Part shown: piece by piece, positions 31 through 5,821 of the stretch
Numbering within the stretch: position 1 is the stretch's first letter
How the letters are laid out: each line of letters opens with the position of its first letter
From: a virus
Lineage: Duplodnaviria; Heunggongvirae; Uroviricota; Caudoviricetes
IMG/VR virus record: IMGVR_UViG_2541047172_000022
Length of the DNA stretch: 6,181 nucleotides
Reading direction: 5' to 3' (one strand)
The notes under the pieces: model-generated
Seen by the model: only the letters and a program-made list of their open reading frames with translations
Told to the model about the DNA's origin: nothing
The model's database searches: none
Position numbers and translations under genes: made by a program

Positions 31-585
31 TCAAAAAGCAATAACTTTTTTCTCTATACCAAAAGCCATAACCATTGGTTTGTACAAAATAAATTCTGCC
101 ACCTTTAGCCAATGCTCAATGCGTCTTTCACAGGTTCTTAAACTCCATTCCGGATGTGCATCATTCAGCAGTTCAGCCATTTTGCGCTTAGTCATCCCCC
201 GCCCCACATAACGCTGACTCAGAACATTGAGCAGCCCGGGATAACCTGCCAGTACTTCACCAATAACCCTGTCGATTATTAACGCCTCTGAATCGGTACA
301 ATGCACCAGCCAGCTTTTTTGCTTGCCGTTGATCATATCCCGCAAAAAAGCCTCAAGTTTAGGTTTGTCCAGACCTGCTTTTTTCATCCTCCGGAGCGCC
401 TCGTTAATTGCCGTTTTTGTCAGCTTTTTAGAGGTCAGCAACTGGTTGAACATATTTCCCGTCTTACCGCCGCCAATATACGACCAGCGCCCCCACATAC
501 GTAGTTTCCCCTGAATCCAGACACTTTCCAGCGTGGTGAGACGAAGGTGCTCTCCGCTTTTTCCTGTGTTCGTTGGGTAAATCAT
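31..585 (-). CDS. Lambdoid prophage protein of unknown function, 184 aa, downstream of the nin-type genes (possibly a late-gene regulator; not lambda-Q-like)
   Basis: Frame is open from 705, but the ATG at 585..583 overlaps the stop of the upstream gene (ATGA at 585..582) and has an AGGA-like Shine-Dalgarno about 9 nt upstream, whereas the ATG at 705 has none and would overlap the upstream gene by 124 nt. G+C resembles the adjacent phage genes. No Cys-rich zinc-finger pattern typical of lambda Q. Function is a guess from position. Confidence 0.6.
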   Translation of the reverse strand: MIYPTNTGKSGEHLRLTTLESVWIQGKLRMWGRWSYIGGGKTGNMFNQLLTSKKLTKTAINEALRRMKKAGLDKPKLEAFLRDMINGKQKSWLVHCTDSEALIIDRVIGEVLAGYPGLLNVLSQRYVGRGMTKRKMAELLNDAHPEWSLRTCERRIEHWLKVAEFILYKPMVMAFGIEKKVIAF

Positions 586-1471: not shown

Positions 1472-1890
1472 TTCTCAATCTCTCGATGGCGCAGTGCAGC
1501 AGATGCCAGTTGTTCAAGCTAGCACGCAAATTGTAAACCAGAATGCCAGGAAAAAACAAAACCCGCCGAAGCTGGTTGTGTGCGGTTGCGTTGAAGTCTC
1601 CTAGCCAAAGAGTAGCGGTGACCACTCCCCGCCGATAATCTTAGTTGTTTAATTTCGTAAGCTAACTAGGCTAAAAGCTCTCTGTTGTCTGCCTGTTGTA
1701 CAATTAACAAAATGAACAACGAACTAGATATACCAACGCCAGAATGGTGCAACAAATCCCAAACAACACAGCAATGCAACAATAACATATGTTATTTTCC
1801 TCTCACGGGATTCAGTCCTGAATTCTCATAAAGCTAATCTTTTTTTAAAAACATACTGTTAGATCACATGCACTTTCTTTCTTAACATCG

Positions 1891-1918
1891 TTGACTTCGC
1901 ATGCGAAGCGTTTAAAAT
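1891..1918 (+). promoter_or_regulatory. Putative sigma70 promoter of the ATPase operon (-35 TTGACT 1891..1896, 16-bp spacer, -10 TAAAAT 1913..1918)
   Basis: Near-consensus hexamers at near-optimal spacing, about 50 nt upstream of the ATG at 1971; a purine-rich AGAGAG lies about 8 nt before that ATG as a weak Shine-Dalgarno. Confidence 0.55.
1895..1908. promoter_or_regulatory. Perfect 14-bp palindrome CTTCGCATGCGAAG in the promoter spacer; putative operator
   Basis: Read directly: 1895..1908 is its own reverse complement, overlapping the last 2 nt of the -35 and filling most of the spacer. Confidence 0.45.
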
Positions 1919-1970
1919 CAACAATTTGCACTTAAGGTATTTATTTTCCCAAACACATAGAGAGTAAATT

Positions 1971-3362
1971 ATGACTGAGAACACGACTCCAACAGCAGAC
2001 TTTAGTCCTAGTAAAAGATTTTTTGTAAGTATGCTAACTCGAGATATCGACTTAAACGATGCCATACTTGATCTGCTTGATAACTGCGTCGATGGGGCTT
2101 TACGTACAATAAAAGACACAAAAAAAACTTCAAAACCATATGAAGGATTTTATGCGAAACTTACGATTAATAAAGATGTCTTTATTATAGAAGACAATTG
2201 CGGAGGTATCCCTAAAAGCTTCCGAGAATATGCTTTTAAAATGGGACGACCCCATCAAAAAGAAGAAGAAAATGAAGGCACCGTTGGCGTCTATGGTATT
2301 GGTATGAAAAGAGCCATTTTTAAAATGGGTAGAGATTGCTCAATACAATCGAATAATCCCGATGGCGCATTCACTGTAGATATAACACCTGATTGGATCG
2401 ATGGTGATGGTTGGAAAATACCGATGCACGAGAGTGACTATGATAACAAAAATCCAACAGGCACAACTATAGAGATAAAAAAACTCCATTCTAATGTGGC
2501 ACAAAAATTTAATGAGAGCACATATCTTACTGATCTCTTTTTACAGATAAAACACTCATTGTCATTTATTATTCAAAAAGGATTTAAAATAGAATTAAAT
2601 GGAGTTGTTGTTGAACATAATCCGATTAACATCATAACTGATCATTCTAAAATAGAACCATACATATATAAAGCTAAAATAGACGATGTTGATATCGATT
2701 TAGTTGTTGGCTTCTATAAAAATTTAGAAGATGACAATGATGATGTTTTAGAAAAAAGGAGTTCTGATGATGCTGGATGGACTGTCATTTGCAATGACCG
2801 CGTTGTTCTATATTGTGATAAGACACATCTCACAGGTTGGGGCTTTGCTAATGTACCAAGGTTTCATACCCAATTTATAGCAATTTCTGGGGTTGTTCGC
2901 TTTACCAGTAAAAACCCAGAAAAATTACCAATAACAACAACGAAACGAGGTGTCGATCTTAGTTCTACATTGTACAATGATGTACGAAATAAAATGATTG
3001 AAGGGATGATGCATTTTATTCGATTCACCAATCAGTGGAAAGGTGAGCATCTTGAAGAAGGGAAAAAATTACTTAAGTCAGCTCAGTCACATGAAGCTCA
3101 ATCTTTATTTGAAATTACCCCACAATCAACTCCAGAAGATAAAAAAAATAACTGGTCCAACCCTAATAGAAACAAAAATGAGTGGCGATATACACCTAAG
3201 CTGCCTACCCCAGTAAAAAAAAGCTCTACTGTACGAATAATCTTCACCAGAGAGAAAGAAGATGTTAAAATTTTATCTAAATATTTCTTTGGACATGAAG
3301 ATGCTAGCGCTTCTGATGTGGGGATGCAATGCTTTGATACGGTGATTGAAGAGGTGAAGTGA
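1971..3362 (+). CDS. GHKL (Bergerat-fold) ATPase, MORC/MutL-like, 463 aa; candidate motor of a restriction or defence module
   Basis: All four Bergerat motifs in canonical order in the N-terminal 170 aa: N-box DLLDNCVDGA (nt 2070..2099), G1 box IEDNCGGI (nt 2190..2213), G2 box GTVGVYGIGMKRAIFKMG with the G-x-G-x-K...G pattern I associate with MORC-type ATPases (nt 2277..2330), and motif IV PTGTTIEI (nt 2457..2471). The C-terminal ~290 aa has no motif I can assign. Long clean ORF. Confidence 0.85.
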   Translation: MTENTTPTADFSPSKRFFVSMLTRDIDLNDAILDLLDNCVDGALRTIKDTKKTSKPYEGFYAKLTINKDVFIIEDNCGGIPKSFREYAFKMGRPHQKEEENEGTVGVYGIGMKRAIFKMGRDCSIQSNNPDGAFTVDITPDWIDGDGWKIPMHESDYDNKNPTGTTIEIKKLHSNVAQKFNESTYLTDLFLQIKHSLSFIIQKGFKIELNGVVVEHNPINIITDHSKIEPYIYKAKIDDVDIDLVVGFYKNLEDDNDDVLEKRSSDDAGWTVICNDRVVLYCDKTHLTGWGFANVPRFHTQFIAISGVVRFTSKNPEKLPITTTKRGVDLSSTLYNDVRNKMIEGMMHFIRFTNQWKGEHLEEGKKLLKSAQSHEAQSLFEITPQSTPEDKKNNWSNPNRNKNEWRYTPKLPTPVKKSSTVRIIFTREKEDVKILSKYFFGHEDASASDVGMQCFDTVIEEVK

Positions 3363-4351
3363 TGTCTGGACAATACATTCCCTATCACTTAAGGCATAAT
3401 AAGTCTATTGATAGAGAGATTTTTCTCGAAAGCCTAAACCTCTTAAGCAAAAGACTAAATATTCAAGAATATACATATATAGGTTTTGGTGGTCCGATGC
3501 TTGAAGATTTTAGAATCATGCATAATCGTATCGCTCTTTCTGATATGATTTCTCTCGAAGAACAAGAGTCTACTCACATCAGACAAAAATATAATTTGCC
3601 TTATAATTGTATTGATTGTAAGCTAATATCAGCTCATGACTTTATTCTTGATTATAGTTTTTCTAAACCATCAATAACATGGTTAGACTATGCCTCCCCG
3701 AAAAAAATACAAACGGATCTAGATGATATACACTTACTAAGTACTAAAGTAAGCTCTTTTGATATTTTGAAGGTCACCTTCCCCATAAATCCTAGTTCTT
3801 ATTACCAACGTAGAGTTGGAGAAAGTTTAGATATTTTTAAAGAAGCTTTTATTAATTCATTAAAATCATTGCTTGGGAAAAAGTATCTTGATTTTAATCT
3901 TCAGATATCAAATGCAGATCTTTCAGATCGTAAGATTAAAGCTCTTTTAATACGAATTATTACAAACGCTTTTAGATCAGCAATAGAACGTGGTCTTTCA
4001 GGACGTAAGGATAAGATTCAGTATTACCCATTATCCTTAAATCAATATAATGATGGCAGTCATACCATGTTGACAATATCAGGTTTTTTCTCCTCAGAAC
4101 AAGAATATATAGAGTTATCTAAGGCATGCGACCTTTCTAACTGGCAATTTTATTCAACAAATTGGGAAGACGTGCAAGAAATAGCAATACCAACACTAAC
4201 AATTAAAGAAAAGATAAATTTAGATAGTAAACTGCCTGATAAAGAAGCATATCAGGCAGCCGCTGAAGAGTTCTCTTTAAACGAAAATGAACGGGATAAC
4301 TATTATAAATACTATAGGTTATACCCTAACTTCCAAAGAATTATGGTTTAA
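3362..4351 (+). CDS. Uncharacterised partner protein of the GHKL ATPase, 329 aa from the ATG at 3362; candidate effector or specificity subunit
   Basis: The ATG at 3362 overlaps the ATPase stop (TGATG, 3360..3364) and has GAGGTG 5 nt upstream; the in-frame GTG at 3359 is too close to that SD. Same AT-rich composition as the ATPase. No PD-(D/E)xK, HNH, PLD, Walker or methyltransferase motif could be confidently identified by eye; there is a CxxC pair (YNCIDCK) and a glycine-rich IGFGGP segment. Confidence 0.8.
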   Translation: MSGQYIPYHLRHNKSIDREIFLESLNLLSKRLNIQEYTYIGFGGPMLEDFRIMHNRIALSDMISLEEQESTHIRQKYNLPYNCIDCKLISAHDFILDYSFSKPSITWLDYASPKKIQTDLDDIHLLSTKVSSFDILKVTFPINPSSYYQRRVGESLDIFKEAFINSLKSLLGKKYLDFNLQISNADLSDRKIKALLIRIITNAFRSAIERGLSGRKDKIQYYPLSLNQYNDGSHTMLTISGFFSSEQEYIELSKACDLSNWQFYSTNWEDVQEIAIPTLTIKEKINLDSKLPDKEAYQAAAEEFSLNENERDNYYKYYRLYPNFQRIMV

Positions 4352-5470
4352 ATATTCGGGCTGTACTCTTTTATTTAATAAATTGTACAGCCCCTTTAAT
4401 ATATATTCAGCAACTATTGGTGACACGCTATTTCCTATTTGTCTGAAACTATGCCATTTAGTTACATGAAAGCGAAACCAATCAGGGAAGCCTTGTAATC
4501 TAGCAGCTTCTCTTGGTGTAATCACTCTTGGATGATAAGGGTGGATCGGCCTGACGGCTTGAAAGCTTCCTTTATCTCTAGCGGTTCCCGCCCTTAAAGT
4601 CGGGCAAAAACCATTTGGATCTAATCTTGTAGATCTTGAAATTTTATCAGTTTCCCCAAAAGATAAGGAAGCATAACGCTCTTGGACGATTTTGCTATGT
4701 AATGTTCCGGTACATCCAGATATGATATTATTTTTTAACTTAGCGATCGATTCTGTATCACCAACATTCCGAGGGATCTGCCCCCATAATTTTTCATAAA
4801 ATCCCCCTTTTCGATCTTTTTTAATTGTTCGCCAACTCTCAGAGTCTGATTGCCAATTGGCATCGATAATATCTGGTAATCCATACAAAGCATCTTTTAC
4901 AGTAACCGGATCAATCATTTTAGGCATAAATACTTCATCTGAAATATCAAGCTTCAATGATTTTTTTACACCGATAAAAAAATATCTAGTTCGAATAGTT
5001 GGAGCACCATAATCAGATGCTTTTACCTTGATGGGATCAAGAATATCATAATCACCGCTAACCAAATTAAATGCTTTATTTCTAATGCCAGAATATTTCT
5101 CTTGCATAATACCTGGAACATTTTCTGCCAAAAAGAATAATGGCTGTAATTCTGATACTAAACGGTAGAAATGCATGTAAAGCTGATTCCTGCTATCATC
5201 AGGATTCCCCTTGCCTATTGAACTAAATCCTTGGCACGGAGGACCGCCAATAATACCATCTATGGGCATATCGTTTTTAAAAAAACCCTTAATTATTTCT
5301 GCATTTAGTAAAGAAACATCTTCTTGGACGTGCAAACTTCTTGGAAAATTAATTGCGTGAGTATTAATAGCATGTTGATCAATTTCAACTGCCATTTTAA
5401 CATCAAATCCAGCACGTGCAGCACCAAGACTTAGACCTCCAACGCCAGAAAACAAATCTATTACATTCAT
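4319..5470 (-). CDS. DNA cytosine-C5 methyltransferase, 383 aa
   Basis: Canonical C5-MTase motifs in order: I DLFSGVGG (FxGxGG, nt 5435..5458), IV GGPPCQGFS with catalytic Cys79 (codon 5234..5236), VI FLAENVPG (ENV), VIII PTIRTRYFFIG, IX/X RVITPREAARLQGFPDWF and QIGNSVSP. A variable region between VIII and IX is consistent with a target-recognition domain. Confidence 0.92.
   Translation of the reverse strand: MNVIDLFSGVGGLSLGAARAGFDVKMAVEIDQHAINTHAINFPRSLHVQEDVSLLNAEIIKGFFKNDMPIDGIIGGPPCQGFSSIGKGNPDDSRNQLYMHFYRLVSELQPLFFLAENVPGIMQEKYSGIRNKAFNLVSGDYDILDPIKVKASDYGAPTIRTRYFFIGVKKSLKLDISDEVFMPKMIDPVTVKDALYGLPDIIDANWQSDSESWRTIKKDRKGGFYEKLWGQIPRNVGDTESIAKLKNNIISGCTGTLHSKIVQERYASLSFGETDKISRSTRLDPNGFCPTLRAGTARDKGSFQAVRPIHPYHPRVITPREAARLQGFPDWFRFHVTKWHSFRQIGNSVSPIVAEYILKGLYNLLNKRVQPEYLNHNSLEVRV
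4357..4394 (+). terminator. Hairpin downstream of the ATPase-operon stop (9-bp stem GGGCTGTAC / GTACAGCCC, 18-nt loop, then CTTTAAT); weak candidate terminator
   Basis: Perfect 9-bp inverted repeat at 4358..4366 and 4385..4393, starting 6 nt after the partner-gene stop. It lies inside the 3' coding region of the convergent methyltransferase. The large loop and short T-run make it a weak intrinsic terminator. Confidence 0.25.
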
Positions 5471-5502
5471 ATAGTTGCAACGTCTCTTATTAGTTTCTAT
5501 GT

Positions 5503-5532
5503 ATTATAACACAACTGTTCTTGATGTTTTAA
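5503..5532 (-). promoter_or_regulatory. Putative methyltransferase promoter with extended -10 (TGtTATAAT) and weak -35 (TTAAAA, 18-bp spacer)
   Basis: On the minus strand a perfect TATAAT (complement of 5503..5508) is preceded by TGT (5509..5511), with TTAAAA at 5527..5532. It sits about 30 nt upstream of the ATG at 5470. Confidence 0.5.
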
Positions 5533-5732
5533 CCCCATAAGATAACCTCATAAAGGCTATCCCTTGAAAATACCGGATCGCATAAATTTAATCTTTCAAA
5601 ACTACTTGTCTATTAATCGAGCAATTTAAGGTTGTTTTAGTCATGTCGATACCGACATAGTTAACTAAACCCATTTCATCGTCCAACAAATGGGGGTAAT
5701 ACACTTTGATTTATAGTCGGGTGGGTTTTTCT

Positions 5733-5767
5733 CTATCTGCCTTTGGTGTTCATGCCCAAGGCAGATA
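5733..5767. repeat. Imperfect inverted repeat (CTATCTGCCTTTGG ... CCAAGGCAGATAG) at the right edge of the island
   Basis: Arms of about 13 bp with one bulged T, around a 9-nt loop, immediately after GGGTGGGTTTTT. No U-run follows the stem on either transcript, so it is not a canonical intrinsic terminator. Confidence 0.4.
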
Positions 5768-5821
5768 GCCTCAAGCACCCGCAGCAATTCTACTTAACTA
5801 TCCTTTTCCCGCAAATCGTTT

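Follow-up and report, generated by a model that had tools for sequence, protein, structure and literature searches.

A PF20553 protein of predicted methyltransferase fold, coupled to a MORC-like ATPase, in a phage-borne module with a Dcm-type methylase

The 6,181-nucleotide stretch of viral DNA analyzed here (IMG/VR record IMGVR_UViG_2541047172_000022, Caudoviricetes; referred to below as the window) carries, at positions 3362-4351 of the plus strand, a gene whose product – judged from a family profile and a structure model – very probably is a member of Pfam family PF20553 with the class I fold of S-adenosylmethionine (SAM)-dependent methyltransferases. The gene is the obligate, translationally coupled partner of the gene directly upstream, which encodes a MORC-like ATPase (1971-3362, plus strand). 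Together with a Dcm-type C5 DNA methyltransferase gene on the minus strand (4319-5470; Pfam DNA_methylase, E=2.6e-61; PADLOC MTase_II, E=2e-98) the two make up a mobile module of three genes, which is accessory cargo (a 'moron') of temperate phages. We read this module as a restriction-modification (R-M)-like or defence system, with a probability of roughly 0.6, and any particular chemistry for it is tentative. The identity of the protein – hereafter the partner – is secure; its mechanism is a proposal.

The partner gene is an uninterrupted open reading frame (ORF) of 329 codons that begins with the ATG at 3362 and ends with the TAA at 4349-4351; at the 31.8% G+C of this region the probability that 329 codons are free of stops by chance is ~3e-12. 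Signals for coupling to the ATPase occupy positions 3351-3364 of the plus strand: a Shine-Dalgarno sequence, GAGGTG (3351-3356), ends 5 nt ahead of the ATG, and the TGA of the ATPase (3360-3362) has one base, the A, in common with the ATG of the partner (3362-3364), giving TGATG (3360-3364). A mechanical ORF listing begins the partner one codon upstream, at GTG 3359; the RefSeq annotation and the homologues, all of which start MS(G/S)G, back the ATG at 3362. Reading frame, overlap and Shine-Dalgarno sequence, as described in an earlier note on this DNA, are therefore confirmed in the sequence, and the arrangement recurs elsewhere. In the 75 related loci in which the partner start could be placed, ATPase stop and partner start overlap in 58 (53 of these as a 4-nt ATGA), and the two genes overlap or lie no more than 12 nt apart in 71. 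The note took this to imply stoichiometric co-expression with the ATPase: co-expression is borne out by the translational coupling, which does not show stoichiometry. In a microarray study of Escherichia coli O157 Sakai, ECs1954 and ECs1955 – which we assigned to the pair by gene order – drop together at the transition to stationary phase (log2 -2.6 and -3.2) and belong to the same expression cluster (PMC2241611). The partnership itself is considered obligate because the ATPase lies immediately upstream of the partner in 79 of 80 loci obtained by a pattern scan of one genome per species (the remaining locus is cut by a contig end), and because the pairwise distances of the two proteins correlate (r=0.79, partial 0.76).

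Assignment to a family rests on a match of almost full length. The partner matches PF20553 (Methyltransf_35, 'putative O-methyltransferase') with E=2e-89 and 300.4 bits, against a cutoff of 27, and residues 1-328 align to profile positions 1-308 of 309. The identical protein in RefSeq, WP_000016656.1, is named 'O-methyltransferase', while the PHROGs entry, phrog_19983, is listed as of unknown function; the 'O-' of the database name is not supported by the present results. An exhaustive profile search with the family returned 2122 clusters at 50% identity, and among the best 150 of these almost all are stand-alone proteins of ~320-345 aa. No model in NCBIfam or in PADLOC-DB v2.0.0 (2023) matches the partner, and searches of PDB sequences with the single sequence and with the profile gave chance matches only. 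The AlphaFold2 model, computed with 34 homologues, has a mean predicted local distance difference test (pLDDT) score of 90.3 and a predicted template modelling score of 0.88, and shows the Rossmann-like core of alternating strands and helices, closing with a strand 6-strand 7 hairpin, of class I methyltransferases. Comparison of the model with all PDB chains (Foldseek) placed Trm1 (3axs) first, with E=1.9e-6, and nearly all of the top 50 are named methyltransferases; the nearest structures are the nucleic-acid methyltransferases Trm1, RsmD, RlmI, RlmJ and TlyA, at an identity of only 6-15%.

The earlier note had seen no recognizable family and no methyltransferase signature in this protein, had suggested a novel effector fold, and had named remote-homology search and structure prediction as the check. 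That check returned the Pfam match and a confident methyltransferase-fold model, and these three statements are abandoned. Its remark that no known nuclease signature is visible holds: no PD-(D/E)xK, HNH, GIY-YIG or PLD nuclease was matched by the partner in Pfam, NCBIfam or PADLOC at E<=1, nor was a nuclease detected in the ATPase. A small metal site formed by a CxxC pair and a later cysteine, also proposed there, was rejected, the residues concerned (Cys83, Cys86 and Cys256) being kept in 65%, 39% and 10% of 277 family members. The notion of a family-less protein with a novel nuclease effector fold and a small cysteine metal site, which drew solely on the R-M-like position in the operon, is hardly credible in the face of the PF20553 match, the methyltransferase fold and the inconstant cysteines.

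Conservation in the 277-sequence family alignment was mapped onto the secondary structure of the AlphaFold2 model (all coordinates on the plus strand). The helix before strand 1 carries the motif Y8-x-L-R11-x-N-K14-x-x-(D/E)-R18 (3383-3415), of which R11, K14 and R18 are found in 276-277 of the 277 sequences. A glycine-rich loop, G41-F-G43-G44-P45 (3482-3496), follows strand 1 (residues 38-42) at the position of motif I, with G or A at position 43 and G, S or A at position 44 in every sequence. Glu66 (3557-3559), at the end of strand 2 (residues 61-66), stands in the place of the ribose-binding acid of motif II (SAM ribose), and is Glu or Asp throughout. The end of strand 4, at the position of motif IV, reads W107-L-D109-(Y/F)110 (3680-3691): W107 and D109 are invariant, and position 110 is Tyr or Phe in 276 sequences. 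Further invariant residues are Y39, R74, Y229, D231 and E283. The least conserved region is a helical insert between strands 5 and 6 (residues 144-215; 3791-4006), which contains indels and has a mean top-residue frequency of 0.30, compared with 0.5-0.6 in the core. Glycine-rich loop and strand-2 acid are the sequence features of a SAM-binding site, and SAM binding is predicted on that ground. Overall such conservation is more in line with an enzyme, or with a protein that binds a specific ligand, than with a domain in decay, and fits a protein that would bind SAM and a second, probably phosphate-rich, substrate. With RNA methyltransferases of the Trm1, RsmD, RlmI, RlmJ and TlyA types the partner shares the class I core, the glycine loop, the strand-2 acid, the strand-4 Asp and an N-terminal helix with conserved basic residues. 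Unlike them, it has no DPPF/DPFG-type motif IV, possesses a variable insert of 70 residues and a C-terminal helical domain of 80 residues of its own, stands in a DNA-centred genomic context and shows no match to them at the level of sequence.

The 80 loci span Proteobacteria, Cyanobacteria, Firmicutes, Acidobacteriota, Verrucomicrobiota, Chloroflexota, Latescibacterota, Poribacteria and other groups. A Dcm homologue adjoins the pair in 67 of them (84%); in some it lies upstream in the same orientation, in the others downstream and convergent. In the window the convergent partner and Dcm genes overlap at their 3' ends by 33 bp (4319-4351, from the ORF coordinates), and most of the 27 convergently arranged loci likewise have an overlap, 6-50 bp long. 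Clustering of neighbouring ORFs across the 80 loci yielded just four families that recur, namely the partner in 80 loci, the ATPase in 79, Dcm in 67 and Vsr in 26, the remaining clusters being antisense shadows of module genes or lineage-specific genes; a conserved neighbouring nuclease was sought in the same way and none was found. The immediate flanks are heterogeneous, and include integrases, HNH proteins, UvrD/GajB-like helicases, other methylases and housekeeping genes. The partner evolves fastest of the three (mean pairwise identity 0.34, versus 0.45 for the ATPase and 0.46 for Dcm). Distances between Dcm sequences correlate weakly with those of either member of the pair, and between partner and Dcm nothing is left once the ATPase is allowed for (partial r=0.05). 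A role for the partner as a sequence-specificity subunit matched to Dcm is rejected to the extent that this coarse covariation test allows.

Several loci elaborate on this plan. One (L010; 6616-13709) has two divergent ATPase-partner pairs around a single Dcm, and its second partner (PF20553, E=2.4e-74) has the glycine loop GMGS instead of GFGG. A second, longer GHKL protein of ~550-610 aa, made up of HATPase_c_3 and an unassigned C-terminal domain of ~150 aa, is present in 8 of the 80 loci (L013, L014, L017, L018, L022, L024, L030 and L034), where it adjoins a Dcm of a different subfamily beside the pair and so gives a four-gene arrangement. In a metagenome-assembled genome of the Myxococcota (L053; 1746-9628) an SNF2-family helicase and a 1198-aa helicase-C protein flank the pair in place of Dcm; this is the sole locus with SNF2 helicases beside the pair, and its arrangement comes nearer to the operons with MORC and helicase genes described by Iyer et al. 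2008.

On phages the module is more uniform. Among the viral contigs of IMG/VR, 49 contain a partner homologue, and all 49 have the complete three-gene set with Dcm adjacent. Twenty-one are P2-like prophages, in which the module lies between portal gene Q and replication gene A, a position that, from the P2 map, we take to be the old/tin hotspot. The Pseudomonas filamentous prophage PfAC20 (a Pf phage) likewise has ATPase, partner and Dcm in its accessory region. Antiviral hotspots, of which the old/tin position would be one, have been described (PMC9122126). In a PADLOC-based study of PfAC20 the cytosine methyltransferase alone was recognized, and was entered as an incomplete R-M system (PMC11878078). 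Three unrelated types of temperate phage – lambdoid (see below), P2-like and Pf filamentous – carry the module in accessory or defence cargo regions, and no mobile-element copy with an intact pair and no Dcm was found. Of the R-M-like module envisaged in the earlier note, the setting is supported (Dcm adjacent in 67 of 80 genome loci and 49 of 49 viral loci, Vsr in 26 of 80), and the nuclease effector is not. Compared with a type II R-M system, the adjacent DNA methyltransferase is there, at 4319-5470, and no nuclease domain was detected in the partner.

The occurrence of Vsr bears on another possible function, in which a MutL-like ATPase and its partner would aid repair of damage due to the linked Dcm, such as the T:G mismatches that arise by deamination of 5-methylcytosine, as MutL stimulates Vsr. 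MutL-Vsr cooperation is established, and Vsr is encoded in 26 of the 80 loci. Some paraMORCs, moreover, may have been recruited to repair (PMC2292703). Such a Dcm-associated repair accessory is nonetheless highly improbable: Vsr is missing from the window and from all 49 phage-borne modules, a partner of methyltransferase fold has no obvious role in repair, and in 8 loci the pair has no Dcm beside it.

The ATPase is MORC-like and contains both a GHKL domain and an S5 transducer. It has no match in NCBIfam and none in PADLOC-DB v2.0.0 at E<=1, a match to MzaB lying far below threshold. Motif I of its GHKL domain (residues 34-38) reads DLLDN, with an invariant Asp where MutL, GyrB and MORC have the catalytic Glu. 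A strand-helix-helix pattern at its C-terminus (~415-463) had raised the suspicion of a ribbon-helix-helix domain; Pfam is blank there, and in hhalign comparisons Arc, CopG, Mnt and ParG-like sequences did no better than a ubiquitin control, leaving the suspicion unsupported.

MORC and MutL work as ATP-gated clamps, and the model that we consider most likely, an R-M-like system of self/non-self distinction, builds on this. Methylation by Dcm would mark the resident (self) DNA, and incoming DNA without the mark would be the target of a complex of ATPase and partner. The ATPase would serve there as an ATP-driven, dimerizing DNA clamp, as in MORC and MutL, and the partner – presumably no classical nuclease – would be the SAM-binding subunit that contacts the substrate and either reads it or methylates it covalently. 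We infer that the two proteins form a complex, that the partner binds SAM, that the target is DNA, that the module defends and that Dcm methylation protects. One form the mechanism could take, which is possible if rather doubtful, is a nuclease-free restriction system, the bacterial counterpart of eukaryotic MORC silencing, in which the clamp, guided by the SAM-binding subunit, would trap or compact unmarked DNA, or damage it through methylation at an abnormal position, without cutting it. If true, MORC ATPases would gain a directly testable ancestral antiviral mechanism, and R-M biology a new effector principle, with a methyltransferase fold as reader or toxic writer.

Parts of this scheme recall known systems. 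BREX, with its methyltransferase PglX, is a defence system built on methylation and ATPases with no identified nuclease; the likeness is by analogy only, PADLOC giving no homology to BREX components and the putatively protective methylase here being a separate C5 enzyme. A GHKL ATPase within a defence-type module is also a feature of MZA (MzaB) and of GHKL-Shedu (VcSduA). In Topo VI (subunits B and A) and in MutL a GHKL ATPase is coupled to a partner or domain that cleaves DNA. The module resembles these in the co-expression of an ATPase of GHKL-plus-transducer type with a second, presumably catalytic, component that would act on DNA; unlike them, the partner has neither a Toprim/5Y-CAP nor a MutL-type endonuclease domain, and no cleavage chemistry is evident. 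The module also resembles the paraMORC/MORC R-M operons (Iyer, Abhiman and Aravind 2008, PMC2292703), in which a GHKL-S5 ATPase is likewise linked to Dcm and Vsr on mobile elements. Those operons were described with superfamily II helicases and with restriction-fold, HNH, TIR or other endonuclease domains (PMC2292703), whereas the present module has no helicase or endonuclease, its only other constant component being the methyltransferase-fold protein.

These comparisons also furnish the case for a cryptic nuclease, in which the complex cleaves unmethylated DNA through a non-canonical site and the module is a true R-M system. GHKL-S5 ATPases classically pair with a nuclease (MutL, Topo VI-B/A, the paraMORCs of PMC2292703), R-M systems typically have Dcm and Vsr genes linked to them, and the invariant charged residues of the partner are unusually many. 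Residues that might form such a site are D109, D231, E283, K14, R11, R18 and R74 of the partner, or C274-N-D-R and H299 of the ATPase transducer. In addition, an HNH-like family of ~220-260 aa (CxxC...RDHVPSK...CxxCN; PADLOC HNH models) is encoded near the module in 6 of the 80 loci, from different phyla (L010, L014, L026, L051, L064 and L079; for example L064:9099-9827), so that nuclease function may sometimes be supplied separately. Its position and orientation vary, and it is absent from all 49 viral loci. A cryptic nuclease we consider unlikely. Sequence data cannot separate it from a second modification enzyme, a guard of SAM or Dcm, or the repair accessory discussed above.

A number of observations weigh against an R-M-like or defence function, or against the chemistry we propose for it. 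'Restriction' is here invoked with no chemistry identified: no nuclease domain was detected in the ATPase, the partner or conserved neighbours by Pfam, NCBIfam, PADLOC and neighbour clustering. Among the three module proteins PADLOC recognizes only Dcm, through its MTase_II models. The ATPase has Asp instead of Glu at the usual position of the GHKL catalytic base, which could mean slow hydrolysis, as expected of a clamp or timer. In the partner the amino-methyltransferase motif IV, (D/N/S)-P-P-(Y/F/W), is incomplete, with the Asp and the aromatic residue kept and the prolines absent. Comparison with the K-D-K-E residues of 2'-O-methyltransferases of the RrmJ/FtsJ type finds K14 and D109 invariant and plausibly positioned; position 137 is Lys in 227 of the 277 sequences and Arg in 49, which weakens a 2'-O-methyltransferase reading, and strand 7 does not begin with a conserved Glu, D231 lying at the end of strand 6. 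An hhalign comparison of the family profile with RlmE, RsmD and RlmJ of E. coli returned no alignment, for which reason the K-D-K-E and Trm1-like N-terminal resemblances remain impressions. Finally, we found no functional study of, or experiment on, any PF20553 member in the literature, where later papers or those in subscription journals may exist.

The same side of the balance holds the loci that lack Dcm. In 8 of the 80 (six cyanobacterial, L036 and L053) the pair stands without an adjacent methyltransferase despite full flanks, from which it follows that a linked Dcm is not strictly required. In Nostocales and other cyanobacteria (L002 and L004-L008) the pair is alone, with no methylase within ~8 kb (less on shorter contigs), and most of these pairs sit among ordinary non-defence genes. 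Three of them (L002, L004 and L008) share a conserved housekeeping neighbourhood of NADH dehydrogenase subunits, a LysR-type regulator and a thioredoxin-like protein, the last two identified by sequence. The lone cyanobacterial pairs suggest domestication or an unlinked methylase.

Loci of this kind would suit a second modification enzyme, in which the ATPase would load or drive the partner and the partner would place a second, non-C5 mark on DNA or RNA; the module would then be no restriction system but epigenetic or anti-restriction cargo that protects prophage and host DNA. The positions of the cofactor site are conserved, the closest structures are nucleic-acid methyltransferases, methyltransferases are common cargo of phages, and eight loci have the pair without Dcm. 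This possibility, which we regard as quite unlikely, leaves the Dcm linkage (84% of genome loci, 100% of phage loci) unexplained and gives no reason for a clamp ATPase of MORC type; the places where phages carry the module, such as the old/tin hotspot of P2 and Pf accessory regions, favour exclusion systems. A further reading is a guard that acts through abortive infection: the partner would sense the level of SAM or the state of Dcm (as altered, for example, by SAM-degrading or anti-restriction proteins of phages) and switch on the MORC ATPase, which would block or compact DNA indiscriminately. A SAM site apparently conserved without a canonical catalytic motif IV, the lack of a nuclease and the absence of covariation between partner and Dcm are in keeping with this, and second-line systems that sense anti-restriction proteins, such as PARIS, do exist (PMC9122126). 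A guard is nevertheless very unlikely, being pure inference: the sequence gives no sign of a toxic effector, and the invariant residues outside the cofactor site suggest a second substrate.

If the module does defend, it would be an R-M-like system whose 'R' half consists of a MORC-type ATPase and a methyltransferase-fold protein with no recognizable nuclease. As such it would bear on the way in which BREX and other methylation-keyed systems without a nuclease stop phage DNA, and on what the bacterial ancestors of eukaryotic MORC silencers do. The partner family is already catalogued, and uncharacterized; the interest lies in a compact, widespread, phage-borne and nuclease-less module that is invisible to current defence annotation, the tools for which see at this place only an 'orphan cytosine methylase'. 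We found no paper that tests or names the module, with the proviso that later or subscription-journal papers are possible. It is convenient for experiment, comprising three genes in 3.5 kb that are native to E. coli O157:H7 (prophage Sp10/CP-933R), with PDB chain 3g7u_A matching Dcm. That chain ('Cytosine-specific methyltransferase', 376 aa) is the best PDB sequence match of the Dcm protein (E=1.3e-254 over residues 1-367), and on the strength of it a structure of this Dcm, or of a near-identical protein, already exists.

In the window the module lies on an island of low G+C content (approximately 1500-5560; ~32-38% against 45-52% in the flanks, the borders being approximate as drawn from a composition profile). 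The island is inserted in the nin/Q region of lambdoid prophage Sp10/CP-933R; RefSeq annotates the flanking phage genes DUF1367, DUF1364 and DUF1133 and a Rac-like early region. The ATPase-partner pair is present in 173 of 5426 complete E. coli genomes (~3%), mostly Shiga toxin-producing strains; Dcm accompanies it in 172, and the island is 100% identical across 172 complete genomes. The sole genome of the 173 without Dcm is that of E. coli O157:H7 F6294 (L083; NZ_CP038372.1; 6392-6895), in which the ATPase gene is intact and one deletion has taken out Dcm together with two-thirds of the partner gene, from its 3' end. In a P2-like prophage (L132; 5995-6988) the partner gene is frameshifted, with ATPase and Dcm intact. 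A table of single-molecule real-time methylomes of O111 strains lists no C5 methylase besides the CCWGG Dcm (PMC6602927); since it holds no other, these strains probably are without the island, and the paper was not used.

Candidate promoters were found by consensus scan. One of sigma-70 type on the plus strand, TTGACT-16-TAAAAT (1891-1918; 10 of 12 matches), lies ~50 nt upstream of the ATPase start; sigma-70-like sites are in total no more numerous in the region than shuffling would lead one to expect, and this promoter therefore remains a candidate only. A second, on the minus strand ahead of Dcm (5500-5532), is a candidate of the extended -10 type, TTAAAA-18-TATAAT with TG, and the palindrome TGTATTATAACACA (5500-5513) overlaps its putative -10 element. 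Further upstream of Dcm is an inverted repeat, CTATCTGCCTTTGG / CCCAAGGCAGATAG (5733-5768), with 14-nt arms of 93% complementarity and no T-run behind.

On the other side of the module the minus strand at 31-1471 encodes three nin/Q-region genes (a Q-like DUF1133 protein, DUF1364 and DUF1367), each joined to the next by stop and start codons that overlap or abut; the RefSeq call for one of them, equivalent to window positions 31-585, is shorter than the mechanical ORF at 31-705. The left edge of the island (1500-1594, 95 bp) is 89.5% identical to a sequence annotated as 'mobile element protein' in Escherichia phages Evi, vB_EcoS-640R1 and vB_EcoS-813R8.

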